64,000 nucleotides of DNA, from the NCBI GenBank assembly GCA_965645705.1, contig CBFFWQ010000011.1, forward strand, positions 1 through 64,000, written 5' to 3'. Under the pieces are notes generated by a model. The model did no database searches. It saw only the letters and a program-made list of their open reading frames with translations, and was not told the DNA's origin. The DNA is from an uncultured Lachnospiraceae bacterium (GTDB lineage: Bacteria; Bacillota; Clostridia; Lachnospirales; Lachnospiraceae). Below are positions 3,260 to 54,467 of this stretch, piece by piece (position 1 is the stretch's first letter; each line of letters begins with the position of its first letter). Both the position numbers and the translations under genes were made by a program.

Positions 3260-3441
3260 AATAGTAACCACCTTTCTTAATGTTAATAGAATTAGAATTG
3301 TACGGAAAACACAAGAATACCGAACAAATCTAATCAAGTGAGTTTAAGTAAAGATAAGGGAACAATTAATCTTTACCAACTGTTGCGGAGTAACAATACT
3401 GCTCTAAAGGCTACCACTCACAGGCATTTATAGGCAACAGA

Positions 3442-21448: not shown

Positions 21449-22030
21449 CTATAAAGGATTCTCTGAATCCTTTTGCACATAACACTGCTCGCACTTACGA
21501 ATCAATTTGTTTCCTTCAAAATCCAATTCTATGATATAAGGCATCCAATTAAGAATTCTTAAAAAATCCGCACAACCAAAGTTGTTATCATAAAAATTCA
21601 ATATTGAACTAAGAGCAGTACCATGCGTTCCAACAACAATTTCTTTCTCTGGATTCTCTAATAAAATCTTATGCAATACTTCTATACTACGTTTCTGAAC
21701 CATAGCAATAGACTCTCCACCATCTTCATGATAATCATGATTAGCCCATCGTTTTTGATACATTCCAGGCTTATGACCATTAGAACCCCCTTCTCGTTCT
21801 CTTAAATGTTCCCCTATGATAATCTCTTTTTCAAAAAATGCTGCAGTACTTGCAATAGTATCTATGCTCCGTCTATAAGGACTACAATAAAAAACATCTA
21901 CAGTTCTATCTTTGAAAAATTCAAGTACCATAGCAGAATCCTTTTTACCTTCTTCCGTCAATGGTCTTGTCCTTGTTTCTCTCCAAGAACATTCTGGTTG
22001 TGCATGACGCACAAAAAACACTTTTGTCAT
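21449..22030 (-). CDS. Histidine phosphatase superfamily (phosphoglycerate-mutase-like) protein
   Basis: VFFVRHAQ (RHG-type motif), CSPYRRSIDT and GTHGTAL. Start trimmed to ATG 22030 with GGAGG SD. Confidence 0.65.
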   Translation of the reverse strand: MTKVFFVRHAQPECSWRETRTRPLTEEGKKDSAMVLEFFKDRTVDVFYCSPYRRSIDTIASTAAFFEKEIIIGEHLREREGGSNGHKPGMYQKRWANHDYHEDGGESIAMVQKRSIEVLHKILLENPEKEIVVGTHGTALSSILNFYDNNFGCADFLRILNWMPYIIELDFEGNKLIRKCEQCYVQKDSENPL

Positions 22031-22144
22031 AGCATCCTCCAAAACTACCTATAAAAGCAAAAGCCACGACAAATGAAATCCCCCAATGAATACACTGAAA
22101 AAATTTCATTTGTCGTGGCTTCTACCACAAAAACTGCCTAAAAA

Positions 22145-26295: not shown

Positions 26296-26907
26296 CTATT
26301 TCTTTAAAAAAGCAAAGCAGGATTCCGCACCATTTTCAACTGACGAATTGTCTGATCCTATCTTATCAAGCAATGAACACAAATCTAAAGATTGGTGCTC
26401 TAAATCATAATTTGTTATCCTTTTGAAATATGCTTCATAGGATTCAGAATTAAAGGATTCTATTACTATATCACCATTAGTATGATGAGCATAATTACAA
26501 TGATGTAAAAAATCATTGCCAAGTAAAGAATCTTGCGACTTTTCATTTGGCACAAGAAAAAAATAAAATCATTTGATAATCTTTTTGTCTAATAGAACAT
26601 TATTTAAATGACATAGGTATCCAGTAATCTGATCACCAGAAGCTGATCTTGGTTCTACTCTTAAACAAGAAGAATTCTTTAATTGATTAATAATCTCATC
26701 TTTATGTTTCATATATTCATGATGACGTAAAAACTCTTTTAAAGTAATGATAGTTTTGCTCGCACCTGTATCAAAAAACATTTGTACATCATTAAAATTT
26801 TCCTGAAATGATAACAAAACATCATAAGCATTATAAGGTTTATTGTATTTTACAATACACTGTTGCAATGAATTCACCACCTTTCGACAGAATACAAGCC
26901 TTACCAC
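26296..26907 (-). pseudogene. Retropepsin-like (clan AA) aspartic peptidase paralog split into two ORFs (26569..26907 with FFDTGAS and 26296..26553 with LLGNDFL)
   Basis: D(T/S)GA active-site motif and downstream GRD-like motif lie in separate frames 16 nt apart. Paralog of 34190..34774. Confidence 0.4.
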
Positions 26908-28889: not shown

Positions 28890-30420
28890 CCAAATCTAAA
28901 GTTTGCACACTGGACAAACTTTGATACAACTGTCTCATGTCCATCTACTCTATCTTTGCCTACTCTGATTCTGATACCAGTACCATTTGCCCACAACCAT
29001 AAAGTACGATCATTCTTCCCTTCAAGCAGAAGCACACTCTTCTTGTTTCTTTTATTCACGTTGGCTTGTCACACTCTGCAATACCTCTCAGGAACTGTCA
29101 AAAATTAACTTTTAAATTTGAGGTTTGATAACATAGTTCCATTTTCCAAGTGTTTCACAGGGAAAAATGTTAATTCTAGCTAATTCGTCATCCGATATCT
29201 TGTGCCCGGTTTCATATACTTTCTCATCAAGCTGGCAGGTAATGGACAATCCTTTTTCTGTTGTTGTATTTGATATTAAACTGATTATTGTTTCAATATC
29301 AATCAATGGATGCCCCTGCCAATTTTTTGAAATATAACAGAACATCCTGTGTTCTATTTTGTTCCATTTTGATGTGCCGGGCGGATAATGGGAAACCATG
29401 ATCTCAAGTCCTGTATCATTGACCAACTGCTGTAATTCGTATTTCCAGTTGCGGCTATCGGAACCGTTGCTCCCACTACCATCACACGTGATATAAATTC
29501 GTTTTGCCGCAGGAAATGTATTTTTTCCAACAGCATTCCACCAACACGAAATACTGGTTACCGCAAATTCCGATGTGTCATGGCTGGTTCCGAGGTTCAC
29601 AAAACCAGTATTGTTATTGAGGACATAGACCCCGTAAGGTGCCACCTTTCCTAATTCAGGTATCGGGAAATCATGATCCAGTACTTTGCGAGGATTTTTT
29701 TCTTCTCTGTATTCTGCACCAGCGTTCTTGAAATTGCCAATGTTCTCTTTTTTCTTTGTGTCAACAGAAATAACTGGCTCCCCGTTCTCCAGATACTCGT
29801 GGGCAGTATGGTCAATCAATTCAAACTGTTTATTACGGTCTGGACTCGGTATGCCGACTTGTTCCATTTTTTGGTTCACCTGTTTGCTGTAGCCCATTTC
29901 TGCCAAAAGCTGTGATATCTTTTCATGACTTACCGTTATGGAATAATCCTCTTCGAGGATATCCCTGATTTGGCGGAGGCTGAGAGTAGATGCAACCCAG
30001 TGCAGTTCTCTGGAAGGATCGCCATATGTGCTGCCATCAATTATTTTTTCGATGGTCTCTGTGATGTTTGGATAGGTCTCCGTGATTGGTTTACGACCAG
30101 CACCTTCTTTGCGGATTCTGCTATCCGAAATAACCTCATCATTCTCGGAATCAGCCTTTCCAACAGTCAGGGTTGGATATGAGATGCCGGTTAATTCAAC
30201 AATGTGAGCCTTTCCACCGCTGCCATATACATCCGCAGCTTTACTCAAAAGGATCCGCTTACTTTTTTCATCTGATAACTTATTTATTAGCGAAACAAGT
30301 TCGTCAAATGAAGCTATATTTATAATATTCATGGCATACTGCTCCTTATCTAATCTATAAAAAGAGTATACTATAATATGCCATGATTTAAAAGTTATTT
30401 ATTGACAATTCCTCAGTAGC
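28890..30420 (-). mobile_element. ISAzo13-family insertion sequence, about 1.5 kb, visibly higher GC than its flanks
   Basis: Contains the transposase ORF. The compositional shift starts near 28890 and ends near 30400. Terminal IRs not resolved by eye. Confidence 0.55.
29112..30332 (-). CDS. ISAzo13-family DDE transposase
   Basis: 406 aa. Matches the Rhodopirellula-type DDE transposase layout (YPPGTSKWNKIEHRMF and other motifs). Confidence 0.75.
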   Translation of the reverse strand: MNIINIASFDELVSLINKLSDEKSKRILLSKAADVYGSGGKAHIVELTGISYPTLTVGKADSENDEVISDSRIRKEGAGRKPITETYPNITETIEKIIDGSTYGDPSRELHWVASTLSLRQIRDILEEDYSITVSHEKISQLLAEMGYSKQVNQKMEQVGIPSPDRNKQFELIDHTAHEYLENGEPVISVDTKKKENIGNFKNAGAEYREEKNPRKVLDHDFPIPELGKVAPYGVYVLNNNTGFVNLGTSHDTSEFAVTSISCWWNAVGKNTFPAAKRIYITCDGSGSNGSDSRNWKYELQQLVNDTGLEIMVSHYPPGTSKWNKIEHRMFCYISKNWQGHPLIDIETIISLISNTTTEKGLSITCQLDEKVYETGHKISDDELARINIFPCETLGKWNYVIKPQI

Positions 30421-32946: not shown

Positions 32947-33396
32947 TTAATCGTCTAACTTACAAACAAGAATCTCCACGCTTGTCTCTTGGAACACCTG
33001 CTGAATCTGCTCCGAAACCTTATCCCATGGCAGCTTATCCAAGCCAGCTCCAATAGTAGGCATTGCAATTTTCTTGATTCCATTCTCTTTACAAATACTT
33101 TTCATTTTCTGTAAAGCAAGTCTCATAGTAATAATACTTGGTTTTTCATAATACCGTTCTTTTGTAATTAAATTTAAAACCCTGCCTTCAAGGATACAAT
33201 CGCCACCAATACGACACCTATTATAATAACTATGATAATCTGGATACTTTTCCAACAGGCAGTTTTTCATATCAAACCTCTTGTTAAACTCTACAACGAT
33301 TCCCTTGCCCATACCAAAATCTGCACTGATGCAATGTGCCAAAAAATAATCTTCACTGACACTAAACAAGTTACACTTTCTTTCTTCGTACTGCAT
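32947..33396 (-). CDS. Macro-domain protein (ADP-ribose binding/hydrolase)
   Basis: HCISADFGMGKGIV and IAMPTIGAGLDKLPW match macro-domain signature regions. Confidence 0.7.
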   Translation of the reverse strand: MQYEERKCNLFSVSEDYFLAHCISADFGMGKGIVVEFNKRFDMKNCLLEKYPDYHSYYNRCRIGGDCILEGRVLNLITKERYYEKPSIITMRLALQKMKSICKENGIKKIAMPTIGAGLDKLPWDKVSEQIQQVFQETSVEILVCKLDD

Positions 33397-33400
33397 AACA

Positions 33401-33856
33401 CTATCCCTTCTTTCTTACAGGAATCCAAATCTCACAAGAATCCTTTGATGGATAATACTCGAGATCCCAACCTTTCACAACTTCGTATTCTTTATCATCA
33501 CAAGACAGAAATTCCCTTTTGATACAATCCCATGCATTCTGTACTGCAACAGAAGTAGAAGCTTCAAAACGAAATACAGCCCATGTCTGCTCTGGCAAGC
33601 AGAATTCCTGGAAACCTTCTGGCACATCATCAGCATCCTCTGCATACAAACCAATACCGTACTTAAACACTTCTTCGCCATTGTTTGCACAAACACCAAA
33701 ATAACAAGACACCTCTTTACCAATCTGCTTTTTGTGATGTGCATCCCACAATGCTGGAATTCCCTCCTTGCGAGTTTCCTCATTAAAATCCTCAAAATAA
33801 ACGAACAATTTTAATTCATCTTTGTTCTCAATACGACAATCCATGATAAATACCAC
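33401..33856 (-). CDS. GyrI-like (AraC effector-binding-type) small-molecule-binding domain protein, co-transcribed with the macro gene (5-nt gap)
   Basis: YFGVC...GIGLY...WAVFRF...EIWIPV pattern. Confidence 0.55.
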   Translation of the reverse strand: MVFIMDCRIENKDELKLFVYFEDFNEETRKEGIPALWDAHHKKQIGKEVSCYFGVCANNGEEVFKYGIGLYAEDADDVPEGFQEFCLPEQTWAVFRFEASTSVAVQNAWDCIKREFLSCDDKEYEVVKGWDLEYYPSKDSCEIWIPVRKKG

Positions 33857-34189: not shown

Positions 34190-34774
34190 TCAATTATTAT
34201 CTTTTGTATTTCCGAAAGCATTCACTCCTGATGCATAATTATTATGATCACTAAAAATAGTATTTTGAAATGGTAAATCTAAAGAATTGAGGCTACAGAT
34301 TTGTTCTTCACTGGTATGTTGAAAAGGATTATTATAACGATAGTCATCAAATGCTGTAACTATAATATCACTTGCAATATTACACTGCCACTGACAACAC
34401 GAAATGAAATCTGCTCCCAACAATGCAGAAGGATTTACTCCGTCAGGAGTAAGATAGAAATAAAATTTTTGAATATAATAATTCCCTATTTTAGCATCTT
34501 TTATGTAACAAAGAGTTCCTATTCTTTCTTGACCAAAAACTGCTTTAAACTTTTGTTTTAAAAAGGAGCTATTATCTAAAATATTTTCCAATTCTTTTCT
34601 TTCTTTAGATGTCCAATATTCAAAATTAAGTAAAGCTGCATAGGAAATCATAGTAAGTTTCGCTCCTGTGTCAAATTTAAGTAATAACTGATTATATGAT
34701 TTATGAAAGGCATTTGTTTGTACAGCATAAGAATTTTGCTTTTCATAATACTTAGCTCTAAATAACTCATTCAA
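34190..34774 (-). CDS. Retropepsin-like aspartic peptidase (FDTGAK plus LLGADFI) ending ...SGVNAFGNTKDNN (VNAF-tail set)
   Basis: DTGA motif, downstream GxDF motif and the shared C-terminal tail. TTG start in the ORF track. Confidence 0.5.
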   Translation of the reverse strand: MNELFRAKYYEKQNSYAVQTNAFHKSYNQLLLKFDTGAKLTMISYAALLNFEYWTSKERKELENILDNSSFLKQKFKAVFGQERIGTLCYIKDAKIGNYYIQKFYFYLTPDGVNPSALLGADFISCCQWQCNIASDIIVTAFDDYRYNNPFQHTSEEQICSLNSLDLPFQNTIFSDHNNYASGVNAFGNTKDNN

Positions 34775-35144
34775 CAGATGTCACCTCCACATCGGGATAT
34801 CCAGGTAAATAAGAATAACCTTTGTCAGAACTTTGTTCATTTCGACACAAATGTACAAGTCTATTATTAAACTCTTTACTTACTGACATGGCAAAAACAT
34901 ACGCATAATCAGAACCACCAGAATATATCAAGCTATTACGATCATTAAGAAAAAAAGCCCAAAGTCCAAAATCAATTTTTAAAGGGTGCTTAAAAATTCG
35001 CAAACCTTGCTCTTCGTAATAATTATTGGAATCAAAAATCACATCCCCTTTATCATCAAAAACAGCATCCACACTCATAGAATCTACTTCATCTAAAGTA
35101 ACACTACTTAAATCATCTAACATAATAATCATCTCTTTCTTCAA
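34767..35144 (-). CDS. Hypothetical protein
   Basis: ORF only. Confidence 0.3.
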   Translation of the reverse strand: MKKEMIIMLDDLSSVTLDEVDSMSVDAVFDDKGDVIFDSNNYYEEQGLRIFKHPLKIDFGLWAFFLNDRNSLIYSGGSDYAYVFAMSVSKEFNNRLVHLCRNEQSSDKGYSYLPGYPDVEVTSVE

Positions 35145-35283: not shown

Positions 35284-36021
35284 TTACCCCATATGCCTAC
35301 AACCATAAACGCAACCTGAGACACTCTCTAATACATCTGCAAAAACGGAATTTACCCCATAATCCTTGTAGAAAATATACTCACAATCAAAAAATTCCTG
35401 AAATAATTCAATACAACTGGAAGAGAATTCCTCAAAGAATCTTATCCCTTTTTCGTAATTGTTTAAAAATACTTGATAAACAACCCTTTCAGGAAAATAA
35501 TAACTATCCATAGGTTCACAAAGATAAGATGTAATTACGTTTTCCATCTCTTTATAAGTAAGTACTCTAGTTAAAGGTTGATCTTTAGAAGAATCGTAAG
35601 TACTGTAAATTCTATGCAGAATAAGATCTAAAGCCAAGCAGGAAAAAAGCTTATGAAGTTGCTCATCAGTACAGTTCGCAATTAATTCTTCTATCATCTG
35701 TTCTTCCTTTTTTGTAAAATCTATTATCGAATTTCCATCGTATTCTTTACCTAAAGTTTTATCTACAAGTTCTTCATAATACCATTCAAAAATTTCGTCC
35801 ATGGTTTTGATATCGAGCTCTTTTACAGGAATCCAAAGATCTTCTAATTCTTTCAACATCTGAGTCCCTTGTTCATAATAATCTTCCCATAAATCATACT
35901 TATCTCTATCAAGTCTCTTTATTTCTTCCTTAATTTCTTTTTGCAGTTCTCCCATGGAAATAGACTTTTTAAAAATAAAAGAAGAACTACTGGAATTCGT
36001 AACAAAATCTGTCCTATACTT
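35284..36021 (-). CDS. Hypothetical protein (start trimmed to MKYRTDF, AAAGGAGAAGG SD 9 nt upstream), 8-nt overlap with the upstream gene
   Basis: Strong SD. The ORF-track extension into the upstream gene is an artefact. Confidence 0.4.
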   Translation of the reverse strand, partial: KYRTDFVTNSSSSSFIFKKSISMGELQKEIKEEIKRLDRDKYDLWEDYYEQGTQMLKELEDLWIPVKELDIKTMDEIFEWYYEELVDKTLGKEYDGNSIIDFTKKEEQMIEELIANCTDEQLHKLFSCLALDLILHRIYSTYDSSKDQPLTRVLTYKEMENVITSYLCEPMDSYYFPERVVYQVFLNNYEKGIRFFEEFSSSCIELFQEFFDCEYIFYKDYGVNSVFADVLESVSGCVYGCRHMG

Positions 36022-37099
36022 CATACAGAACCTTCTCCTTTCTATTGCACAAAACAATCTGTCTTCGAATAGGACAACCACCCATACACAAGACTCTATC
36101 TTTACACAAAGGGCAAGATTGCTTGAAGAATGATCTAAAGGGACAAAACTGAGGACTGTCCCATGCTTCTTTAATAGAATGATTGTGTAAGTCAAATCCC
36201 CACCGCAGCTCCTGATTATCAAAAGAACATGGCATGGCAATCAAATCAGCACTTACATACATAGACCATCTTCCGCCTTCACAAGTATCAATACTAACTG
36301 ACTCTACCTTTCGACAACAATTCACAATTCCAGGAACACTGCAACTGTCGAATCCTATTTTAAAAGGAAAATTCCCCCTATCTACCAGATGAAAAAACTC
36401 CCTAACTTTTACATCATGAAGTTTCAATACATTCTCTTCCATACCTAAACCTATTGGTTTATGAAGAAGAAAAATAACTGCATTAATCCCCTCTGGGAAA
36501 TCTTTCTTCTTCAGCCTATCTAAAGCTTCGTCAATAGAATTGTTTCCCAGTACATAATGAATATTTGTCTTAACACCCGCCTTGATAAGTGCCTGAATCG
36601 CATCTAAAATGTGCTGCTGCCGATACCAACTAATTGCTACTGCACCACAATACTGCTTACACAATTCTACAATTTTCTCAGTAAAACCAATGCCAGAGGA
36701 AGTGAAATTAGGTACAATATGATTCTTTTTACAACACTCTAATATTTCTTTGAAGTTTTCATGCTGGTCAACGTCACCCCTCCCACCTAAAGCAAACTGA
36801 AAAGTTTTGCCTCTGCATTCCCTTGCAAGTCTTTGGAACTCACTCAAAGACATATTAGGCTTTTGTACGTGTAAGCCGTCCTGATAACACTGCACTCCTG
36901 CCTTCATGCACAATACACTCTTACCATGCATACAGTGTCCCATGACACCAACATCAATAAGTTCTGGAAAAGATGCCATGAAAGGATCTTCTCCTGTATC
37001 TTTCCCATCTCTAATGATACCTATCCTGCAATACTCCCCTGTCTTTGTATTAAAAATAGAGACAAAATGATTCTCTTCATCCACTTTTCTGATAACCAA
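36014..37099 (-). CDS. Cys-rich protein with a C-terminal CxxCx5Cx3C (SPASM/twitch-like) cluster. Possible non-canonical radical-SAM/Fe-S enzyme.
   Basis: C-terminal CPLCKDRVLCMGGCP. No canonical CxxxCxxC found. Confidence 0.3.
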   Translation of the reverse strand: MVIRKVDEENHFVSIFNTKTGEYCRIGIIRDGKDTGEDPFMASFPELIDVGVMGHCMHGKSVLCMKAGVQCYQDGLHVQKPNMSLSEFQRLARECRGKTFQFALGGRGDVDQHENFKEILECCKKNHIVPNFTSSGIGFTEKIVELCKQYCGAVAISWYRQQHILDAIQALIKAGVKTNIHYVLGNNSIDEALDRLKKKDFPEGINAVIFLLHKPIGLGMEENVLKLHDVKVREFFHLVDRGNFPFKIGFDSCSVPGIVNCCRKVESVSIDTCEGGRWSMYVSADLIAMPCSFDNQELRWGFDLHNHSIKEAWDSPQFCPFRSFFKQSCPLCKDRVLCMGGCPIRRQIVLCNRKEKVLYEV

Positions 37100-37288
37100 A
37101 ATAACACACCCTCTCTATTACTTTTTAAGCTTGTTCTTTTGCTTCTTCAATGAGTACCTCTACTTAGCAAATCTAAAGGCTCATAAGTGTAATAGAATTC
37201 TTGTGACGTGCAACTACCATAGCCTAACACCAAACATCTCACCAGAGGCATTTCGTGTTTTAAATACCTCTGGCAGATAACTCACACA

Positions 37289-38743
37289 CTATTTCTGCAA
37301 TCTACGTAACAAATCCATCTTCACGGCATAATAGTCTGGAGTGAAATCTAAATAATGCTGATGTGGATTTTCAAAACGTAACTCTTCCTTCCACACTTCA
37401 TGCTGTAATTGATGCTGTACTTGTGCCCTAATTTCTTTCAAAGAAGGTGACCTATACACTAATTCACCATTTCTAAAAATCGGAACCTGTAATTTTCTTA
37501 CGGTGTAGTTCTCAAAAAACCTCTGTTTCCATGGCATAGCTGGATCCACATACCGAAAAGGCTTCGTAAAATTAAGACATTCACTCTGTTTTCCAATTAA
37601 ATCAGCGATGGATCTACCATACTCATCGTAAATTCTGTAAACACTTTTTAAACCCGGATTCGTAATCTTTTCCACATTCTCTGAAATTTTAATACGTGGA
37701 ATAAAAGTAAGTCCATGTTTTGCCACTGCTGCCAGCTTATACACTGCACCAAAAACGGAATCACTCTTAGCAGTAATCAAACGTTCTCCAACACCAAAAA
37801 CATCAATAGCCGCATTTTGATTAACTAAAGAAGCAATTGTAAATTCATCCAGACTATTGGAAACAATCACCTTGCAATCAGACATACCAGCGTCCATTAA
37901 CATCATAGTGGCTTTCTTTGATAAATAAGCTAAATCTCCACTATCGATACGAATCCCCTTGAGCCTCTTACCTTGTGGTTCCAATACTTCTTTTGCTACT
38001 TTAATTGCATTCGGTATACCACTTTTTAACACATCATAAGTATCTACCAATAAAACACAAGCATCTGGATAAATTTCTGCATACTTCTTAAATGCGGTAT
38101 ACTCATCTTCAAAATACATTACCCAACTATGTGCCATTGTACCCGATACAGGAATCCCAAAAGTCTTTCCTGCCAGTACAGTCGCAGTACTATCTACGCC
38201 ACCAATATAAGCAGCTCTTGCACCATAGACAGCTGCATCTGCATTGTGAGCACGCCTTGCACCAAAATCAGAGACTATTCTTCCCTGAGCTGCACGAACA
38301 ATACGGCTTGCTTTTGTAGCAATTAAAGACTGATGATTTACCTGTAACAAAATTGCTGTTTCAATTAACTGAGCGTCAATCAAAGGAGCGACTACCGTAA
38401 TCACTGGCTCATTTGGATACATCACGGTTCCCTCTGGAAAAGCGTACACATCGCCGCTAAATCTAAAGTTCTGCAAATAACTTAAAAACTCTTCCTTGAA
38501 AATTTTCTGCTCACAAAGATACTCAATATCATCTTCCTCGAAATGAAGTTCCTGTATATACTCAATTATTTGTTGTAACCCAGCAAAGATAGCATAACCA
38601 CCGCCATCGGGATTCTTTCTATAAAATACATCAAAAGCCACACGCTGCTCACTTTTTGCTTGACTGCTATTAAAATAGCCATTACTCATGGTTAATTCAT
38701 AAAAATCCATGAGCATAGATAAATTCCTTTCGTTGTTTTTCAT
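37289..38743 (-). CDS. pncB: Nicotinate phosphoribosyltransferase
   Basis: LMDFYELTMSNGYF N-terminus, FGARRA, SGTMAHSW, 484 aa. AGGGGA SD. 11-nt gap from pncA. Confidence 0.85.
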   Translation of the reverse strand: MKNNERNLSMLMDFYELTMSNGYFNSSQAKSEQRVAFDVFYRKNPDGGGYAIFAGLQQIIEYIQELHFEEDDIEYLCEQKIFKEEFLSYLQNFRFSGDVYAFPEGTVMYPNEPVITVVAPLIDAQLIETAILLQVNHQSLIATKASRIVRAAQGRIVSDFGARRAHNADAAVYGARAAYIGGVDSTATVLAGKTFGIPVSGTMAHSWVMYFEDEYTAFKKYAEIYPDACVLLVDTYDVLKSGIPNAIKVAKEVLEPQGKRLKGIRIDSGDLAYLSKKATMMLMDAGMSDCKVIVSNSLDEFTIASLVNQNAAIDVFGVGERLITAKSDSVFGAVYKLAAVAKHGLTFIPRIKISENVEKITNPGLKSVYRIYDEYGRSIADLIGKQSECLNFTKPFRYVDPAMPWKQRFFENYTVRKLQVPIFRNGELVYRSPSLKEIRAQVQHQLQHEVWKEELRFENPHQHYLDFTPDYYAVKMDLLRRLQK

Positions 38744-38754
38744 CTTGATATCCC

Positions 38755-39285
38755 CTATGCAATTTTAATCTGGCAAGATGCCATTGTTTCTAAAGCTGCT
38801 TTATGTTTTTCTGGCGTTACACCTGCACAGCACTTGCTATCAACACTAATAGGAACTTCTGGAAGAAATGCTTTCAACAGAAGAGCATTAGAAACTACAC
38901 AAATATCTGTACATAATCCAATCAGCTCCACACTCTCTGGGTTCAAGCTTTTTACATCTAAAGCCAGATTCGTGCTACCAAAAGTTTCTTTCTTGTAAAT
39001 AGGACAATCTGCCAAAAGATCTCTTACTACTGGGTGCAGTTGCCAGCCTTCTTCTCCTTCTTTGCAATGCTCTACAGGTAACAATTTTCCTTCTTGAGTG
39101 AATTTATAATTCTCATGATGTGTATCCATTGTTACATAAATTTGATAATCTTCTGCTTTGCACTTCTTAATCTTTTCTACTACTGCCTGAACAATGCCCT
39201 CTGCTTCCTTAGAACCTAAAGAGCCTGTGATGAAATCATTTTGAAAATCCACTACGATGAGTACTTTGTTTCCTTTCTTTTTCAT
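38755..39285 (-). CDS. pncA: Nicotinamidase / isochorismatase-family hydrolase
   Basis: VLIVVDFQNDFITGSL, catalytic Cys context GLCTDICV, 176 aa. Confidence 0.75.
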   Translation of the reverse strand: MKKKGNKVLIVVDFQNDFITGSLGSKEAEGIVQAVVEKIKKCKAEDYQIYVTMDTHHENYKFTQEGKLLPVEHCKEGEEGWQLHPVVRDLLADCPIYKKETFGSTNLALDVKSLNPESVELIGLCTDICVVSNALLLKAFLPEVPISVDSKCCAGVTPEKHKAALETMASCQIKIA

Positions 39286-39341
39286 AATTTTTACAATTAA
39301 AAACTGATAACCACCAAGCAGCTATCAGTCTAAATATTATA

Positions 39342-39863
39342 TTATTTAATTTTCTTATCTCCAAATGCATTTACTGTATTCGCTTTTTCAAATGAGGAGG
39401 ATTTATCATTCGTATCTTTGATTTCGAAATCATCAGAAACATCTTCATCTATATCCAACATTTCAAAATCATCAAGAAATTCTATAATTTCAGAATATAA
39501 ATCATACCTTTCTTCAAAACATAATTCATAAACTTGATTAAAAGCATCTTTACTGTAGCTAATCAAGTAAGTTTTAATAAATTTATCAAAATCTCCTATA
39601 TTTTTCATTTCATGAACCAAAGAATTTCTCATATCTGTAAATGCAGTAGGTACTTTCGCTGAAATACGATTTTTCACACATTTATAATTTGCACATTTAT
39701 TTTCTTTATAACTGCAAACGAGCTGTATTGTTTCAAATAAGCGTATGATTAACAAAGTTAAAGTTGCCTCACAAGGAAAATCCCTAAAATCTCTTAAAGT
39801 TCTCGCAAGGACACGTTTAGCCTCAGAAACCTCCTCAAAAGCAACAACTTGCTTATTAGGCAT
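39342..39863 (-). CDS. HEPN-domain protein (Rx4H motif in MRNSLVHE) ending ...NTVNAFGDKKIK (VNAF-tail set)
   Basis: Rx4-6H motif in a predicted helical context, plus the shared tail. Confidence 0.45.
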   Translation of the reverse strand: MPNKQVVAFEEVSEAKRVLARTLRDFRDFPCEATLTLLIIRLFETIQLVCSYKENKCANYKCVKNRISAKVPTAFTDMRNSLVHEMKNIGDFDKFIKTYLISYSKDAFNQVYELCFEERYDLYSEIIEFLDDFEMLDIDEDVSDDFEIKDTNDKSSSFEKANTVNAFGDKKIK

Positions 39864-40182
39864 TTAACCACCGCCCATCTCTGTAAACACACGTTAAATT
39901 ACGAATACCTGTTTGCTTTGGGTCAAAATCTTTTACTTTCTCTCGTACAACACCATGCCAATAATTTGTTTCTTCATCAGAATATAATTCTTCAAACTCC
40001 TCTACATCAATTACAGTAATATCATTTGAATCAATAATTAGCCATAATAATGAATGATACGTAGGATCATCAAAATTTTTTGGCTCTGTTACCCACAATT
40101 CCTTAGCTAAAGGATTTTCCATTAAATCTTCCCATTTCTTTCTTACAATTTCTCTATTCAATTCCATGATTAACACCTCCAT
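39856..40182 (-). CDS. Small acidic protein, tandem paralog B (about 75% aa identity to 40311..40619). Its stop overlaps the HEPN start, making it a candidate immunity/antitoxin partner.
   Basis: 8-nt overlap with the HEPN gene. Paralogy extends to the nucleotide level. Confidence 0.45.
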   Translation of the reverse strand: MEVLIMELNREIVRKKWEDLMENPLAKELWVTEPKNFDDPTYHSLLWLIIDSNDITVIDVEEFEELYSDEETNYWHGVVREKVKDFDPKQTGIRNLTCVYRDGRWLNA

Positions 40183-40310
40183 ATTTTAATAAAAACTATA
40201 AGTACCTTCATAAATATTTTATCACATTATAAAATAAATGTCCAACTATTATTCTACAATTAACTTTTACTTCTTTCGCATAATCAATTATTTTCTCTAT
40301 AATACTATAG

Positions 40311-40619
40311 CTAGTGCAACCACCGCCCATCTCTATAAACACACGTTAAATTATGAATACCTGTCTGTTTTGGATCAAAATCTTTCGTTTTTTCTCGCAC
40401 AATACCATACCAGTAATTTGCTTCTTTATCGGAATAAAGTTCTTCAAACGCATCTACATCAATCACCGTTACATCATCAGAATCAACAACAAGATGTAAT
40501 GACGGATGACACGTAGGATCATCAAAATTCGCTGCTTCTGTCACCCACAATTCCATAGCTAAAGGGTTCTTCATTAACTCTTCCCAGCGTTTTCTTATAA
40601 ATTCTCTATTAGTCACCAT
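40311..40619 (-). CDS. Small acidic protein, tandem paralog A
   Basis: Same family as 39856..40182. Confidence 0.45.
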   Translation of the reverse strand: MVTNREFIRKRWEELMKNPLAMELWVTEAANFDDPTCHPSLHLVVDSDDVTVIDVDAFEELYSDKEANYWYGIVREKTKDFDPKQTGIHNLTCVYRDGRWLH

Positions 40620-40634
40620 GTCACAATCACCTGC

Positions 40635-41696
40635 CTAAACATCTGATAATGCCTTAATAATACCACACGCCTTATAATGTTGCAATGGATAATACTCTAT
40701 GGAAACTTCTTTTTCTTTCGCCAATTGTTTGATACTATTCAAACAAGGGTCAACAGCAGACGCTTCGCTCACTAACACTTTCCACGGAACTCTCCTTAAT
40801 AGCACTCTTGTAGTTTCTCCAATTCCTGGCTTAATAAGGTTCACGTCCTTAATTTTAAATTTTTCCGCCAATTTCCTGACTTCGTCAATGCCATGACCTA
40901 AAGGGACAGAATCTTGTACCATAGAATTTTCTTGAAACTCCGACTCAATGGCATTAATGAATTCATACGACAAATCAGAATCTTTCAATTCTTCATAATA
41001 AACAGCACCATGAAAATCATTAACTCCAATAACATCATCACGTAAAAAAGTTCTGCTAATTAAACCTGAAACAGTACTGTTTAAACAAGAACTTGGTATT
41101 AATAAATCTTCATGAGTACCGCATAATTCCGTTACATTCGCTGGGTCAGCTACAACAGCAAGTTCTGGATTAACACCAGGGTAATCAACTAAAGCTTTCT
41201 GCAATGTATTCTGGATTGCACCTTTACCAATCCAACCATCGACAAACAGAAGATCACCTGCATCATACTGCCCCAACAACCATTTCATTGCATTGTGATC
41301 GATACCCTTACCACGAATAATAGAAATGGAATAGTGCGGAACTTCTATTTGCCACTTCCACTTTAAATACCGTTTCAGCAAAATCCCAATCGGAGTACCT
41401 GCACGAGCTAAAGAAACCAGCACAACATTCTTTCCACGAGCCTGCACAATCTTCTCTGCAAGCACTCCAAGGGCAACAGCTACTGGCTTTGCATAGTCCC
41501 TAAGAGCTGCTTGATATACTTCTAAATATCTTTGACTTGGTACATACTCAATAGGCAACATCTCACAATAATGCTTACCACTCTGAATTAGCTTTTCTCT
41601 TTCTTCCGTTGACTGAGGCTTTACCAGTCCAGTAATATCCTTTAACAATAAAACTACATCATCCTCTGAATACGAACTTCTCAACTCTAACACCAC
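40635..41696 (-). CDS. StiP-like protein (the family usually paired with an atypical PRTase in Ter-associated metabolite modules). Overlaps the PRTase gene by 10 nt.
   Basis: Size, operon partner and recalled family resemblance only. Confidence 0.35.
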   Translation of the reverse strand: MVLELRSSYSEDDVVLLLKDITGLVKPQSTEEREKLIQSGKHYCEMLPIEYVPSQRYLEVYQAALRDYAKPVAVALGVLAEKIVQARGKNVVLVSLARAGTPIGILLKRYLKWKWQIEVPHYSISIIRGKGIDHNAMKWLLGQYDAGDLLFVDGWIGKGAIQNTLQKALVDYPGVNPELAVVADPANVTELCGTHEDLLIPSSCLNSTVSGLISRTFLRDDVIGVNDFHGAVYYEELKDSDLSYEFINAIESEFQENSMVQDSVPLGHGIDEVRKLAEKFKIKDVNLIKPGIGETTRVLLRRVPWKVLVSEASAVDPCLNSIKQLAKEKEVSIEYYPLQHYKACGIIKALSDV

Positions 41697-42817
41697 CTAA
41701 CTAATGTAATACTCTTATTACCACACGAAACTAAAGCATTCACTAAAGAATAAACCCCAGTAGCTACTAACTCTTCGGCATCGGTCAAAATAAATACTTG
41801 ATCGTACTTGGTCAAATTATACACAAAAGTCTTCCTGCCTTTTTCATACAAGCTGACTAATTCCCATCGCTCGTGTAATGGATACTCTTTCTCTGTACTG
41901 ACTGCAATAGGACTACGTGTTGTAGCATGGAACTTAACGGTAACTCCTGCCAAATCTTCTATTTTCTTCGCTACGTACAAAACTGGATACATAAATTCTT
42001 CTGTACCCAAAACTAAAGTACTGCTGTCAGGTAATACTCTACTTTTCATACTATTCCAGAAAAAATTACACACTGCCTGATAATCTGCTGGTGAAGACAA
42101 CTTGCGGGTATCAATGCCACACTGCACGTTAATGCACTCTATGGGACAAACATCACAATCCAAATCATGATAATAACCATCTTCTCTATAACCATTCGCA
42201 ATCGCTTCATAGCCTCTATGGTCTGTCTTAACGAGATAATGCACTTGAATTCCACGATTTTCAAAATGGGCAAGAGCTTCCCTGTCCATACCATTTAAAA
42301 GAGAAGCAACAGAATACTGAAGTCTGTCAGACCATTCTTTCTCCATAGCACCAATCAAATCGAGAATCGTATTCCCTGTTGTTACTTCATCTTCTACAAA
42401 AACAATACGCTTAATCTTACCATGTAGAATGGTTTCTTTCATGCCGTCTTTCACTAACTTCTGTTCTGTAGCATGGCTATGTGATTCTGTAAAAAAAAGA
42501 TAATCTGCCTGATACAAGCACTCTCTTGTGGTCTGCACATACTGCATTCCAAGTTTCATTGCTACGCACGCACCAATTGCCGTAGCTGTCCCAGCGAACC
42601 CAATAACTAAAGTAGAATCTTTATCATACTGATTTGCAAGCAAATTACTAAGTTGACTGAATAAAGAAAATGTTTCTGTCGGAGAAACTGGTACGTGCTT
42701 TCCTTGCAATGGGTTAACTACAAGATACTTTCTTTTATTATTATTTTCTCTTTTGGCAATCTTTACCAAATCACTTTCACTGTACAAAATAAAAACTCCT
42801 TCCTTAATCATACTCAC
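41687..42817 (-). CDS. Phosphoribosyltransferase-domain protein (large atypical PRTase)
   Basis: PRPP-binding motif IVFVEDEVTTGNT. Confidence 0.65.
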   Translation of the reverse strand: MSMIKEGVFILYSESDLVKIAKRENNNKRKYLVVNPLQGKHVPVSPTETFSLFSQLSNLLANQYDKDSTLVIGFAGTATAIGACVAMKLGMQYVQTTRECLYQADYLFFTESHSHATEQKLVKDGMKETILHGKIKRIVFVEDEVTTGNTILDLIGAMEKEWSDRLQYSVASLLNGMDREALAHFENRGIQVHYLVKTDHRGYEAIANGYREDGYYHDLDCDVCPIECINVQCGIDTRKLSSPADYQAVCNFFWNSMKSRVLPDSSTLVLGTEEFMYPVLYVAKKIEDLAGVTVKFHATTRSPIAVSTEKEYPLHERWELVSLYEKGRKTFVYNLTKYDQVFILTDAEELVATGVYSLVNALVSCGNKSITLVRWC

Positions 42818-42941
42818 TAGTTGTAAAATTTACACCTAACTGAAAAGATACACCAAACGCAATAAATCTAAAGGCTCGTAAGTGTAATAAAAACTTTTCC
42901 ACTAACAATTTTCAATCATTAATGAAACAGCTTCTTATTAT

Positions 42942-43517
42942 TTAAATTAATATGTATGCTGATACAAATGTCTTGGGTAATGTTTTTCCGTTGTAGCCTT
43001 CCATATGACATTTTGCAAAATCATCTCTGTAATCTTCTATTGTTAATTGCTTAGACCAATCACCATCAGCATAACAATTTTCAAAATCACATCGAAATTT
43101 ATCACCATAACATTTTATAAAAAATCTCGCTACAAAATAATACTGCCAAGGCTCTTCCATCAAATCCCCAATTGGTTCTTCAAATGCTTTCGCCCTGATA
43201 TTAACAACTTCCATTGGAGATTTGCATTTTTTAAATAAATTGTAATAATCATTAACATCTCTATACGGATACGGAAGAATAACACTATTTCTTAATTCCA
43301 TTAAAAGTCTTGCATTCATACCAACTTCGATATAACCTTCATAATTAGCGAGTTTATACTCATAATCATAGCACAAAATTTCACAAATTTCATATAAAGG
43401 ATTATCATCTTCATCAGTACCGATATTTGTAATCTTATACTTATTAAGAATTTCGTTCTCAATTTCTTGATACGTCTTTTCTTTCGTGAAATCTTTCAAT
43501 AGACTTAGATCGATCAT
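42942..43517 (-). CDS. Hypothetical protein, paralog of 60374..60949 (for example LLMELRNSVILPYPY vs LMELRKSCILRLP, and EEPWQYYFVARFFI vs DENWQYWWATRLFI)
   Basis: Intra-window paralogy. Confidence 0.35.
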   Translation of the reverse strand: MIDLSLLKDFTKEKTYQEIENEILNKYKITNIGTDEDDNPLYEICEILCYDYEYKLANYEGYIEVGMNARLLMELRNSVILPYPYRDVNDYYNLFKKCKSPMEVVNIRAKAFEEPIGDLMEEPWQYYFVARFFIKCYGDKFRCDFENCYADGDWSKQLTIEDYRDDFAKCHMEGYNGKTLPKTFVSAYILI

Positions 43518-43794
43518 TACAAAAACGCTCCTTTCTTCCTTACCGTTGTTGCAAAATTATTTTCCTCAGCTGTAATTTTTCGTCTACCATTTTCATCTTA
43601 AATCAAATGAGAAACTACATTACCGTAAACATAAATTTATCCTCTAACTAAAGGCAGGAAGAACTTGGAATGAGCAGAATACTGAATAATAATAATAATA
43701 ATAATATATTCAATTCTACTATTCAAGGTTAAGCACCTTGCCTGCCTTAACAGCTCATTGTAGCTTAATCTCTACACAATCTAAAGCGAAGCAA

Positions 43795-44622
43795 TTAGGA
43801 TACTACTAAATCATAAAGTTCTTTCGGTAAATAATTCCTTAAGAGCTCATCTGCATTTGGAACAGTCTCATGATAAAATTCCTCTGCAATGCCACCACCG
43901 ATTGCACATAGTGTATCCGTGTCGCAACGAATGCTCAGCACATTCCTGAGAAAACTCTCATAATCTTCAGAATCTAAAAAGCATCGAATTGCTACAGGAA
44001 TACTTCCTTGACAAGTTGTATCCCAACCACACTCTCTCCGCATCTCATCTAAAGTCATAGATACTGGATACAAACATGAACTATCTGGATACTGCTTAAG
44101 AGCATACTCCCCAATCTCCTTTTTAGATGCACCTGTCTTTGCCATGAAACCACATACTGCCGTAACCACAGCACCTTTAATACCTTCTGCATGATTATGC
44201 GTACACGCAGCAGAACTTTCTGCATACTGAGATACTGATCCTAATGTATCAAAGAAATCTACAACAGGAGAGACTCTCATGGCAGAACCATTACCGCAAC
44301 TATTGTAAGGTTGCCTGTCACAAGATTTTAACCATTTACTAAAACCGCCGCCATAACTACAATCAGGATACTTAATCCCAAATTCGTAATAAGCATCTGC
44401 AAACGATACGTTATTTTGCAACGCATACTTTGTTGCAATTGTTAAAACGGTATCATCAGTATAAAAACAATCTTTTGCAAATAATTCTACACCTTTCCAA
44501 TCAAGATTCCATGGTCGATTAAATTCCCATTTAGAACCTGTAATGTCACCTAAAATTACACCTATTATTGCCAATGGCAAACACTCCTCTCTGTTCTGAC
44601 CTAAAGGGAAGTCGTAAATCAA
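43795..44622 (-). CDS. ADP-ribosylglycohydrolase (ARH/DraG family)
   Basis: GDITGS, YTDDT, GNGSAMR, HNHAEG and GGGIAEE motifs. Confidence 0.75.
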   Translation of the reverse strand: MIYDFPLGQNREECLPLAIIGVILGDITGSKWEFNRPWNLDWKGVELFAKDCFYTDDTVLTIATKYALQNNVSFADAYYEFGIKYPDCSYGGGFSKWLKSCDRQPYNSCGNGSAMRVSPVVDFFDTLGSVSQYAESSAACTHNHAEGIKGAVVTAVCGFMAKTGASKKEIGEYALKQYPDSSCLYPVSMTLDEMRRECGWDTTCQGSIPVAIRCFLDSEDYESFLRNVLSIRCDTDTLCAIGGGIAEEFYHETVPNADELLRNYLPKELYDLVVS

Positions 44623-51259: not shown

Positions 51260-51844
51260 TTACATACACAATACATCTTTGTCCTTTTCCCAAAAATCTC
51301 TTTTTTGCTGCAACAATCGAAAAATTTCATCTTCTGAAAATAAGAAGAAATGATTTAGGTCACACCCAACATTGAGACCAAACGGTTTGAATAATCCTGT
51401 AATGCGATGCGTATGACCAAATAAATTGACATACTCATCTTTGTGATTCGATGGATAATGATTCAGATAAAATGGCTGTGTACGAAGAGTTAAATACAAT
51501 TCTTTGTATACTTCTTTAAATCCAGCACTAACTGCAAATTCTCTAAAATAGGAGAAATTTCCAGCAAAAACCTTGGAAAGAATCCGTTCTTCATTATTCC
51601 CGAGAATTAAGATGGAATTACACTTTATCTGTTTTACGAGATGGATATTTTCCCAAAAAGCGGTCTTTTCCCATTCATTGTAATTAATAAAATCGCCAAC
51701 GTGATAAATTGTATCTGTATCACTTACTTGACAATTAAAATTTTCTATAACACTACTGGCAAATTCTTTTGCCGAACGAAAAGGTCGATGCTCCCTTGCC
51801 AGTATATACTCTCCACCAAAATGGGTATCCGCAATAAAATAATT
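51260..51844 (-). CDS. Metallophosphoesterase (paralog 1)
   Basis: FIADTHFG, GNNE, GHTH. Start trimmed to MNYFIADTHFG with AAAGGA SD. Confidence 0.6.
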   Translation of the reverse strand, partial: NYFIADTHFGGEYILAREHRPFRSAKEFASSVIENFNCQVSDTDTIYHVGDFINYNEWEKTAFWENIHLVKQIKCNSILILGNNEERILSKVFAGNFSYFREFAVSAGFKEVYKELYLTLRTQPFYLNHYPSNHKDEYVNLFGHTHRITGLFKPFGLNVGCDLNHFFLFSEDEIFRLLQQKRDFWEKDKDVLCM

Positions 51845-52011
51845 CATAAAATTCCTTTCTACACTCAAACTATAGAAACTATAATAGAAGATTTTGCTGA
51901 CACTTGAAGATTGCAAATCTAAAGGATTGTATAGAAATAAAATTAGGAACTGTTACAGGACTCCGTCCTGCAGCAATCCCTACAAAAAATACTGTACGCT
52001 ATAAAAATGGA

Positions 52012-52479: not shown

Positions 52480-53053
52480 CTATAACTCAATTTTTTCTAT
52501 ACTTTGCTTAAATACAAAGTTATTTTTCTCTAATTCCTTCAAAGTTACAGGTGCATAACCATTAATAACCACACCACAATTTAGAGCCTTATCTAAAGTC
52601 CTCATAAACTGAAATGTAACATTTGTGCTATTATGAATATGTCCATACACATGATAAGTTCCATGATACATCCATTCCACTCAGCTAAAGGATAATGACA
52701 AACGCAAATATTTCTACCGTCATCTCTTACATGACACATCTTGTCCACGCCTTCAAAACAACTCATAGCAGCAGCATCTTCTAAAAGCTTACCATCGTGA
52801 TTACCGATAATAAGATACTTTTACCTTTTAACTGTTTTAAGTACCATTCAAAAGGTTTCGTGTTTCTGTAAACAAAATCGCCTACTACATACACCGAATC
52901 CTTATTATTTACTTTCTTATCCCATAATTCAATAAGTATACGATCCATCTCTTCTACGGAACTAGAGGGTCTATTATCAAACTTAATTACACTCTGATGA
53001 CCAAAATGAAGATCTGCAACATAATAAATCATATCCATGAATCTACCTTTCAC
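52480..53053 (-). pseudogene. Metallophosphoesterase paralog decayed into two ORFs (52781..53053 with DLHFGH and 52480..52680 with GHIHN)
   Basis: N- and C-terminal MPE motifs lie in different frames. Confidence 0.45.
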
Positions 53054-53369: not shown

Positions 53370-53822
53370 TCACTCGATACGGTAGTCTTTCCTATTTGCT
53401 TTCTTAACAAGATCAAAGTAATTCGGATCATCTCTATCCAGAATACCACCTTGCACGTCACCACTTTTAGCACCGCCAAATGTAAAGAAAGTCTTTCCGT
53501 CAATCGAAAAAACTTGACCTCTTTCCAACAAAATAATATTAGGAAGAATTTTTCGCACCTTTTCACCATTCCATTCTTCTACTGGATACTCTGCAATTAA
53601 ATCATAATTCTCATGATTTCCTTGCACCCACAAAATAGTGAAAGGAAGTCTTGACATCCAATCCAAATTATATTCTAATTCTTTATCCTTTACCCAAAGT
53701 AAACTAAAGTCACCACAGACAATTATAAAATCTCCTTTGTCTGACTCTGCCTGTACTCTCCATCGGCTCTTCTTTGTAAAGCGACTAAAACTGCCATGTG
53801 TGTCACCTGTAACATAAATCAT
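53370..53822 (-). CDS. Metallophosphoesterase (paralog 3, 150 aa)
   Basis: YVTGDTHG, CGDF, GNHE. Confidence 0.5.
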   Translation of the reverse strand: MIYVTGDTHGSFSRFTKKSRWRVQAESDKGDFIIVCGDFSLLWVKDKELEYNLDWMSRLPFTILWVQGNHENYDLIAEYPVEEWNGEKVRKILPNIILLERGQVFSIDGKTFFTFGGAKSGDVQGGILDRDDPNYFDLVKKANRKDYRIE

Positions 53823-53915: not shown

Positions 53916-54467
53916 TCAAATTAAATTCATGCCGTTAAAAGCATTTAGCATTCCTGTCACAATAAAATCTGCTATCTGCATAACTAAACGCATCCGTACC
54001 GAGTGAATGAATTCCTCAAAAGCAATATCAGATTGAGTCACTATACCAGTGATGCTAATATTCCCCACTTTTGGTAAAGTTTTACCAAAAGCAATTCCTG
54101 GAGAAATTTCTCCTTCACGCAAAGTAACACTACCAATAGCATTGCATTCCCCCATAAAACTATCAATAACAATAATGAATGGATTACAATACTTGTTATT
54201 CATAGTATCAATCATTTCTTTAAGATTACCCGCATGAACGCTAGACTCTAATGTACCATACACAATTATACCATCATAATGGTTAGAAGCAAGCCTATGT
54301 CCAACTATCGAACCAAGACAATCCCCAATAAAATAATCTGAACCAATACATAGAACAATAATTCTCTGATAACCATTTAATTTGCTTCTTAGCATTGTTT
54401 GCAACTTGTACTCAAATTGCCGTCTGTTGTTTTTCTCTGCAGTATTAAAATTACAATAAATACTCAC
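53916..54467 (-). CDS. yyaC: YyaC-like putative sporulation/germination-protease-family protein
   Basis: IIVLCIGSDYFIGDCLGSIVGHRL resembles the YyaC/GPR-type signature. Confidence 0.45.
   Translation of the reverse strand: MSIYCNFNTAEKNNRRQFEYKLQTMLRSKLNGYQRIIVLCIGSDYFIGDCLGSIVGHRLASNHYDGIIVYGTLESSVHAGNLKEMIDTMNNKYCNPFIIVIDSFMGECNAIGSVTLREGEISPGIAFGKTLPKVGNISITGIVTQSDIAFEEFIHSVRMRLVMQIADFIVTGMLNAFNGMNLI

Follow-up and report, generated by a model that had tools for sequence, protein, structure and literature searches.

We analyzed a 64,000-nt stretch of DNA (hereafter, the window; positions 1 to 64,000 of contig CBFFWQ010000011.1, assembly GCA_965645705.1, from an uncultured Lachnospiraceae bacterium) in which genes of NAD+, ADP-ribose, and phosphoribosyl pyrophosphate (PRPP) metabolism lie close together, and on balance we lean towards reading them as a modular island for counter-defense and takeover on the NAD+/ADP-ribose axis, whose cassettes appear exchangeable and would share one theme rather than form one pathway. 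We infer the physiological roles from the enzyme assignments and from published phage biology, and the replenishment of NAD+ and removal of ADP-ribosyl groups that a first-pass annotation of this DNA had proposed are consistent with both. What is new here, as judged from gene content, is a bare pair of Ter-type phosphoribosyltransferases (PRTases), PRTase_2 and StiP, that stands without C-C lyase, ATP-grasp, HAD, or TerD/TelA and beside varying NAD/ADP-ribose enzymes. Statements of absence from the window cover these 64 kb, and profile scans covered the gene interval described below together with most of the larger open reading frames (ORFs) of the window. All genes and signals of the cassettes lie on the minus strand, and related loci are cited by our L numbers.

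A bare Ter-type PRTase pair beside NAD and ADP-ribose enzymes

The first gene of the pair (41687..42817) encodes a PRTase_2 domain (PF15609, 8.5e-41) with a C-terminal TRSP domain (PF12500, 6.5e-22). Its product has the PRPP loop VEDEVTTGNT at residue 141 and the motif TTRSP at residue 299, and F140, E142, and the residues of DEVTTG-T (143-148, 150) are invariant in an alignment of 20 homologs. The second gene (40635..41696) encodes StiP, the former PRTase_1 (PF11202, 1.5e-103), with a C-terminal PELOTA_1 domain (PF15608, 3.3e-29) and the motif FVDGWIGKG at residue 151. A PRPP-binding-type loop is recognizable in both proteins. The two genes overlap by 10 nt, which together with the Pfam matches bears out the earlier call of a coupled PRTase and StiP-like protein of the Ter-associated type.

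The Ter-associated biosynthetic module was predicted by Anantharaman, Iyer, and Aravind in 2012, as cited in PMC11994780 and PMC7824862, and the substrate and product of the PRTase pair are known only as part of that 2012 prediction. In a bacterial example of the module (Anaeromicropila populeti, L008), PRTase_2 with TRSP and StiP/PRTase_1 with PELOTA adjoin and overlap just as they do in the window. Among 80 bacterial PRTase_2 loci, StiP was present in every one, C-C lyase in 65, YceG in 47, TelA in 40, and ATP-grasp in 13. In contrast, the pair described here, within the part of its element that the window represents, is unaccompanied by C-C lyase, ATP-grasp, HAD, TerD, TelA, or YceG and has ARH, PncA, and PncB as neighbors instead. 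A tblastn search of the window with the L008 ATPgrasp_Ter and C-C lyase proteins gave no match, homologs of the L008 TelA and YceG were sought there without success, and TerD and TerC were likewise not found in it. No Pfam domain of C-C lyase, ATP-grasp, or HAD phosphatase occurs among the ORFs scanned. Conversely, none of the 80 bacterial loci (0/80) has ARH, PncA, PncB, or Macro within 10 kb of PRTase_2-StiP.

By sequence, PRTase_2 is 52-56% and StiP about 67% identical to chromosomal copies in Lachnospiraceae. Since the top bacterial PRTase_2 match among 185,579 species genomes is a 56% match in Lachnospiraceae, it suggests a host range and shows that the locus is not part of the bacterial core. 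The NAD/ADP-ribose neighbors of the pair differ from one variant to the next: ARH in the window and L023, NUDIX in L026, PncA in the window and L005, NADAR in L005, and NadE with Macro in Acinetobacter phage ME3. By analogy across these variants, the neighbors are suggestive of a functional tie to the pair.

The Ter system of the jumbo Acinetobacter phage ME3 is already on record (PMC7824862). In the corresponding segment (L029, record 209142-219173), the order is NadE...Macro...TerD-PRTase-HAD-PRTase, with vWA also present. ME3 therefore resembles the window in having phage Ter-type PRTases near NAD/ADP-ribose genes, and it differs in its HAD, TerD, and vWA companions. The Ter PRTase-HAD-PRTase genes of ME3, a phage unrelated to the window element, lie within about 8 kb of its NAD synthetase and Appr-1-p (Macro) genes.

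One apparent phage relative was set aside. MT836648.1 (L010), a virome record labeled "UNVERIFIED: Bacteriophage sp.," has a StiP that is 68% identical to that of the window, but TelA, YceG, C-C lyase, StiP, and PRTase_2 are arranged there as in bacterial Ter loci, and the record is most likely bacterial DNA. As a separate observation, four independent metagenome assemblies (L001, L003, L016, and L017) all break inside PRTase_2 at position 1-66, at about window position 42440, and leave a 251-aa C-terminal fragment. The shared break suggests a strain-variable junction upstream, near an inserted 191-aa ORF described below.

Nicotinamidase and nicotinate phosphoribosyltransferase genes

Downstream of the PRTase pair, a nicotinamidase-type isochorismatase (PncA-like; 38755..39285) matches PF00857 at 3e-28, and its best solved relatives are nicotinamidases. 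It aligns with the Pyrococcus horikoshii nicotinamidase 1ILW at 7.2e-11, and the residues that face their 1ILW counterparts are an Asp (in VVDFQ), an Asp/His (MDTHH), a His (VEHC), a Lys region (IYKKET), and a Cys (TDICV), which we take to be the Asp-Lys-Cys catalytic triad and the Asp/His/His metal ligands. The protein scores below the cut-off of the NCBIfam equivalog PRK11609 (38.4 vs 174 bits), and this weakens the assignment only slightly since PRK11609 represents the enterobacterial form of the enzyme.

PncB (37289..38743) follows after a gap of 11 nt. It passes the nicotinate phosphoribosyltransferase (NAPRTase) equivalog NF006695 with 659.9 bits against a cut-off of 469 and has the complete three-domain architecture of NAPRTase_N, NAPRTase, and NAPRTase_C (PF17767, PF04095, and PF17956). 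The conserved motif GTMAHS at residue 201 is presumably the phospho-histidine site. Judged by these matches, PncB is a bona fide NAPRTase, and it is 49% identical to the NAPRTase gp277 of Bacillus phage G. The nicotinamidase and nicotinate PRTase pair with its 11-nt gap, as first annotated, is thus upheld by the NF006695 score and the 1ILW alignment.

Phage G itself provides the closest arrangement for comparison. Its gp273-gp283 cluster reads Nudix-PncA-PncB-KptA-NadD-NadE, with an isochorismatase-type PncA adjoining the NAPRTase as in the window, and in both cases the genome is that of a very large phage or phage-like element with further genes for processing NAD or ADP-ribose close by. The window, however, has PncA and PncB only, and L005 has lost PncB. 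When the window was searched with the phage G NadD, NadE, Nudix, and KptA proteins, no match was found, and PncA alone had one. A six-frame translation of the window contained no Prs, HIGH-NMNAT, or NadE motif.

Other phages carry NAD+ genes as well. A gut jumbo phage, "Kuafu_71," has pncB-nadD-nadE (PMC11662467), and large phages commonly encode ARH, Macro, and NADAR proteins (PMC7824862, PMC9503650). Three phage NAD+ reconstitution pathways, NARP1, NARP2, and NARP3, have been described (bioRxiv 10.1101/2024.02.11.579819; PMC13464706), and a Macro phosphatase is found in extended NARP1 operons (bioRxiv 10.64898/2026.01.28.702374). The window genes presumably share with NARP1-3 the purpose of restoring NAD+ from the products of NADase defenses, along with one type II PRTase. 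They differ in that their route would run through nicotinate and nicotinate mononucleotide (NaMN) and need NadD and NadE from elsewhere. None of the combinations Adps with Namat, Nampt with Nmnat, or PnuC with NadR occurs among the ORFs scanned. An extra pncA-pncB pair beside ADP-ribose hydrolases, at first thought unusual, has precedents in Bacillus phage G and in gut jumbo phages. Just as phage-borne PncA-PncB is not new, Ter-type PRTases had been seen before in a jumbo phage.

Enzymes predicted to act on ADP-ribose

At the upstream end of the cluster lies a gene for an ARH3-like ADP-ribosylglycohydrolase (ARH; 43795..44622). The product matches PF03747 at 6.6e-24 (85.5 bits vs a cut-off of 26.2) and phrog_6572 at 7.3e-37, keeps both metal-binding acidic motifs, YTDDT at residue 54 and CDTDT at residue 233, and has ARH3 as its closest solved structure (3.5e-10). 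On the strength of the PF03747 score and the paired acidic motifs, it is a member of the ARH/DraG family. Where the gene starts is uncertain, its relatives being called with a length of 259 aa.

Further downstream, a GyrI-like/Cass2 small-molecule-binding protein (33401..33856; PF14526, 1.6e-16; PF06445, 2.7e-13) is followed after 4 nt by a stand-alone macrodomain of the TARG1/DarG type (32947..33396; PF01661, 1.6e-6; PADLOC DarG, 2.8e-16). The Pfam matches and the 4-nt spacing agree with the GyrI-like and Macro genes first proposed at 32947..33856. Among solved structures, the macrodomain matches TARG1/OARD1 at 3.4e-22 and the DarG-type macro entry 5m31 at 2e-5, and by these comparisons it falls in the TARG1/DarG clade. 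It resembles the phage Macro phosphatase Adpp (NARP1-AP) in being a stand-alone macrodomain on a phage-like element with NAD salvage genes nearby, and differs in being nearer by sequence to TARG1/OARD1 and DarG than to Poa1p/Adpp and in having a GyrI-like partner instead. It also differs from the DarTG toxin-antitoxin system: although the macrodomain is DarG-like, no DarT ADP-ribosyltransferase was found beside it, the neighbors being the GyrI-like protein and a 507-aa ORF without a Pfam domain. Of the PADLOC defense models compared with the cluster proteins, only that of DarG found a match in this macrodomain, apart from a negligible match of PRTase_III-A.

Organization into separable cassettes

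Searched ORF by ORF with profiles, the interval gave the genes that had been annotated from sequence alone (ARH, PRTase_2 with TRSP, StiP with PELOTA, PncA, PncB, GyrI-like, and Macro), and the coordinates and domain calls of that annotation were essentially right except for HEPN. All of its called genes were recovered, while three ORFs had been omitted from its interval (42942-43517, 36014-37099, and 35284-36024). The first-pass annotation had also described a single tightly packed operon. We could not confirm this since a terminator-like hairpin of 14 pairs followed by a T-run (39301-39331) separates the HEPN-like gene from PncA, the second small acidic gene is preceded by a promoter-like site (extended -10 element; 40244-40216), the intergenic gaps between units measure 277, 124, 143, and 189 nt, and relatives carry the units independently. 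With matches admitted up to E = 1, neither a riboswitch nor any other Rfam RNA was detected in the cluster or its vicinity.

Comparison with related elements is more telling, as it separates the cassettes further and does not support the idea of one operon for one pathway. In L005 (PRTase_2 60%, StiP 78%, and PncA 86% identical), the order is PRTase_2-StiP-small-HEPN with PncA further on, and PncB is gone. In L023/L025 (PRTase_2 85% and ARH 91% identical), ARH stands directly before PRTase_2-StiP, and in L026 (PRTase_2 63% identical), a NUDIX gene lies between StiP and the small gene. The PRTase_2-StiP core is kept throughout, whereas L005 lacks PncB and most of the radical-SAM pair, L023 lacks the 191-aa ORF, and L026 has the NUDIX gene instead. 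Read from this organization, the interval is a set of separable cassettes, namely, ARH; the inserted 191-aa ORF; PRTase_2-StiP; the small protein (in two copies) with the HEPN-like protein; PncA(-PncB); a radical-SAM-like pair; and GyrI-like-Macro. The locus is accessory rather than housekeeping, as first proposed, with a mobile phage-like element as its carrier, variable gene content, and no PRTase_2 above 56% identity in any bacterial species-representative genome. Since that carrier is accessory and not a bacterial core locus, the converse, a conserved core block common to relatives, does not describe what we found.

A small acidic protein and a probable HEPN protein

Between StiP and PncA lie two genes for small acidic proteins, of 102 aa (copy 1, 40311..40619) and 103 aa (copy 2, 39856..40167), and a gene for a 173-aa, all-alpha, HEPN-like protein (39342..39863) that ends in a disordered acidic tail with the residues VNAF. 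The small proteins are candidate partners of the HEPN-like protein, and the stop of copy 2 overlaps the HEPN-like start by 8 nt. The paralogs share 73% aa and 79% nt identity, have isoelectric points of 4.6-4.8, and belong to a narrow family (mean column identity 83%) for which no family match was found. We left the small protein without a fold assignment because an AlphaFold2 model of a natural small+HEPN fusion gave its small domain a predicted local distance difference test score below 50.

The 173-aa protein has no Pfam, PHROG, or PADLOC match, and no Pfam HEPN model reaches threshold on it. It carries a conserved R-x4-H motif; across close homologs, N80 and H84 do not vary and R79 hardly does, and the pattern R-[ND]-x3-H is retained in most relatives at 15-37% identity. 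Its structural similarity to HEPN toxins is weak. Thus, of the HEPN protein with tandem small acidic partners that had been proposed, the duplicated paralogs stand, and the HEPN assignment is only probable, with the R-x4-H motif in its favor and no profile match. The protein resembles HEPN-MNT (HepT-MntA) toxins in being small and all-alpha, in its R-x4-H motif, and in its translational coupling to an upstream partner, with which it forms a fusion in some cases. That partner differs in being an acidic protein of about 100 aa and not an MNT nucleotidyltransferase.

Fusions of the small and HEPN-like proteins occur in both orders (P0132/P0133/P0146 and P0170), and in view of these natural fusions and the gene overlap, the two clearly work together. 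Only 36 representatives among 1.84 billion belong to this tiny family. Large elements without any PRTase (L012 and L019-L022) also carry the pair, beside DUF4325-PIN and AAA-ATPase_like/PDDEXK_9 genes; in PRTase-free elements, it is duplicated, intact or frameshifted, and one variant occurs in >900 assembly blocks. A functional tie of the HEPN pair to the NAD/PRPP enzymes, as initially suggested, is not borne out since the pair is widespread without them, and by its distribution it clearly works independently of those enzymes. It amounts to a narrow, widely sampled two-gene module without described relatives.

The end of the HEPN-like protein recurs elsewhere in the window. Five window proteins (12924-13370, 20615-21364, 34190-34774, 39342-39863, and 53916-54467, minus strand) have [VILM]N[AV]F within 15 residues of the C-terminus, where shuffling predicts 0.076 such proteins. 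Four of the five have the VNAF form, mostly behind a polar or acidic low-complexity linker, and a NAF or NVF ending is likewise common among the HEPN-like homologs that other elements encode. The motif could serve these proteins as a common signal for docking, targeting, or cleavage.

Nature of the element

The window has a guanine-plus-cytosine (GC) content of about 34% and a strongly negative GC skew, and nearly all of its ORFs lie on the minus strand. Many are ORFans, and most have no family match. An alternative genetic code was considered by dropping each stop codon in turn, and the standard code was retained because the ORFs did not become clearly longer. Identical contigs occur in several gut metagenome assemblies (ENA ERZ128028xx), contigs holding relatives reach 219 kb, and we found no near-identical DNA in phage and plasmid collections.

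Several genes point to a huge phage. An 866-aa protein like the major vault protein (MVP-like; 737-3337, minus strand; MVP_shoulder, 6.7e-22; Vault_3) shares 39% identity across 92-96% of its length with proteins from the uncultured phages LR756500 (462 kb) and LR756501 (735 kb) and has no match in the plasmid collection. The window also contains a DnaX-like clamp loader (phrog_5846), a 216-aa ORF with homologs in 369 phage records, and one tRNA. The one-stranded gene layout, the many ORFans, and the length of the relatives' contigs point the same way. Weighing these signs, we think it likely that the element is a huge (jumbo) phage whose hosts are gut Clostridia or Lachnospiraceae, and we have hardly any doubt that it is a mobile accessory element. 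An SPFH/band-7 protein is encoded at 11421-12419.

Proposed function and alternatives

In the model that we favor, PncA would convert nicotinamide, released by host NADase defenses or by the element's own NAD-consuming enzymes, to nicotinate, and PncB would combine nicotinate with PRPP to give NaMN, feeding NadD and NadE encoded by the host or elsewhere. PncA-PncB would then be an abbreviated Preiss-Handler form of phage NAD+ replenishment, with a putative role in counter-defense. From their family membership, the ARH3-like hydrolase and the macrodomain, the latter with its GyrI-like ligand binder, may strip ADP-ribose from macromolecules or hydrolyze ADP-ribose-derived metabolites. The PRTase_2-TRSP/StiP-PELOTA pair appears to have been captured from a host-type Ter module without the C-C lyase, ATP-grasp, HAD, TerD, and TelA. 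It probably makes a phosphoribosylated base that could plug into or jam host Ter signaling, or it could act on a substrate derived from NAD or ADP-ribose; this is the weakest step of the model. The small acidic and HEPN-like proteins would form a self-contained two-component toxin-antitoxin or exclusion module that merely happens to be located here.

Several points weigh against this model. Completion of NAD+ would rest on genes outside the window because NadD and NadE are not in it. No capsid, portal, terminase, or other virion gene was found in the 64-kb window. IMG/VR contained no relatives of the small protein and, by single-protein query, no close relatives of PRTase_2, and phage status is therefore not proven; an alignment query of IMG/VR returned one PRTase_2 relative, 38% identical, with a full Ter module. 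Our searches found no solved structure for PRTase_2 or StiP, no characterized homolog, and no biochemical paper. Finally, the NAD/ADP-ribose neighbors of the pair could be there by chance, huge phages being generally rich in such genes.

The modular island has to be weighed first against a single pathway in which ARH, PRTase_2, StiP, PncA, and PncB, with or without Macro, build or rebuild a nucleotide derived from NAD, ADP-ribose, and PRPP. The type I PRTases could use an ADP-ribose-derived pyrophosphate or a nicotinamide/nicotinate-like base, giving a new route to NAD+, or they could synthesize a signaling or toxic nucleotide. A constant PRTase_2-StiP core flanked by ARH, NUDIX, PncA, and NADAR, the presence of NadE/Macro in ME3, and the PRPP-binding-type loop kept in both PRTases would all fit, but NAD/ADP-ribose neighbors are found in 0/80 bacterial PRTase_2-StiP loci, and a hairpin and the unrelated small+HEPN cassette intervene between the PRTases and PncA. 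PncB, moreover, is dispensable in L005 and a standard NAPRTase by its equivalog score, and the window has no PRPP-synthetase/Adps-like, NMNAT, or NadE gene. We consider a single pathway unlikely.

Alternatively, the island could be an offensive or exclusion device. Here the PRTase pair would supply a precursor of the Ter signal that triggers a host Ter membrane response, the HEPN protein would act on superinfecting phages as a toxin of the abortive or exclusion type, and ARH and Macro would protect the element against its own or competitors' ADP-ribosyltransferases. An action of jumbo-phage Ter genes against superinfecting phages has been proposed (PMC7824862), the small+HEPN pair sits among toxin-antitoxin-like DUF4325-PIN pairs in relatives, and the probable Lachnospiraceae hosts have TelA, YceG, and C-C lyase able to complete the pathway. 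Against this, TerD, TelA, and TerC were not found in the window, PADLOC gave only the DarG-like macrodomain, and PncA-PncB would be left unexplained; we regard such a device as improbable.

Lastly, bacterial chromosome or plasmid DNA with ordinary NAD salvage and Ter stress metabolism is a very improbable source of the window: PncB, PncA, PRTase_2, and StiP have close bacterial-type homologs, DnaX-like, guanylate kinase-like, and spore-protease-like genes are present, and IMG/VR has no small-protein relatives and a single PRTase_2 relative at 38%, but the top bacterial PRTase_2 among 185,579 species genomes reaches only 56%, the Ter partners were not found in the window, most ORFs have no family match, the MVP-like protein matches huge phages only and no plasmids, and gene content differs from strain to strain.

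As to the wider setting of the modular island, depletion of NAD+ holds a central place in antiphage defense, and the phage countermeasures (NARP1-3) are a fast-moving subject studied mainly in phages of Proteobacteria. In the window, PncA-PncB, with which the Preiss-Handler route begins, stands next to erasers of ADP-ribose on a huge phage-like element of gut Firmicutes. Most components are known from large phages, and the remaining novelty is the minimal Ter PRTase pair with its NAD/ADP-ribose neighbors, along with the undescribed small/HEPN-like module. A bolder proposal, to which we give little credence, is that the stripped PRTase_2-TRSP/StiP-PELOTA pair is a new two-enzyme counter-defense device on the NAD+/ADP-ribose/PRPP axis, with ARH, NUDIX, NADAR, Macro, and PncA as interchangeable feeders. 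The task of such a device might be to restore a nucleotide, either a pyridine one or one derived from ADP-ribose, or to produce a decoy that would jam Ter signaling in the host. If true, it would be the first biochemical handle on the long-uncharacterized "nucleoside-like metabolite" pathway of Ter. A two-protein biochemical test is feasible since the Ter PRTase pair is here free of its usual five-gene context and repeatedly found beside NAD/ADP-ribose enzymes.

Other features of the window

The 191-aa ORF (42942..43517) is a strain-specific insertion between ARH and PRTase_2. It has no Pfam, NCBIfam, PHROG, or PADLOC match, a GC fraction of 0.297 vs about 0.38 in its neighbors, and no counterpart in the otherwise syntenic L023/L025.

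Downstream of PncB, a non-canonical radical-SAM/SPASM-like protein (36014..37099) has weak matches to SPASM (1.6e-4) and Radical_SAM (5e-3) and a match to phrog_7293 (1.3e-17), and the canonical CxxxCxxC motif is not present in it. Its gene overlaps by 11 nt that of a 246-aa protein starting MKYRTDFVTNSSSSSF (35284..36024), for which no family match was found and which is called at the same length in L001 and L016. In L005, the radical-SAM-like gene is cut to a 50-aa remnant, and its 246-aa partner is likewise a short remnant. The radical-SAM-like protein is probably unrelated to the NAD theme.

A retropepsin-like family, recognized by weak aspartyl-protease Pfam matches and a DTG-type motif, has an intact member at 34190-34774 and apparently split copies at 26569-26907 with 26296-26553 and at 18029-18277 with 17799-18002. 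The intact gene overlaps an upstream 125-aa ORF (34767-35144), of which L012 (15556-20460) has four tandem paralogs followed by one protease-like gene. A DDE transposase of the ISAZ013 family (29112-30332, minus strand; PF07592, 3.2e-115) has inserted in the element and lies on the same strand as all its neighbors. The window also encodes calcineurin-like metallophosphoesterases, one of them apparently split, and a histidine phosphatase (14279-14983, 51260-51916, 52480-53053, 53370-53822, and 21449-22042, minus strand). These could be phosphoesterases of nucleotide signals or of ADP-ribose phosphates, which would fit the theme of conflict.

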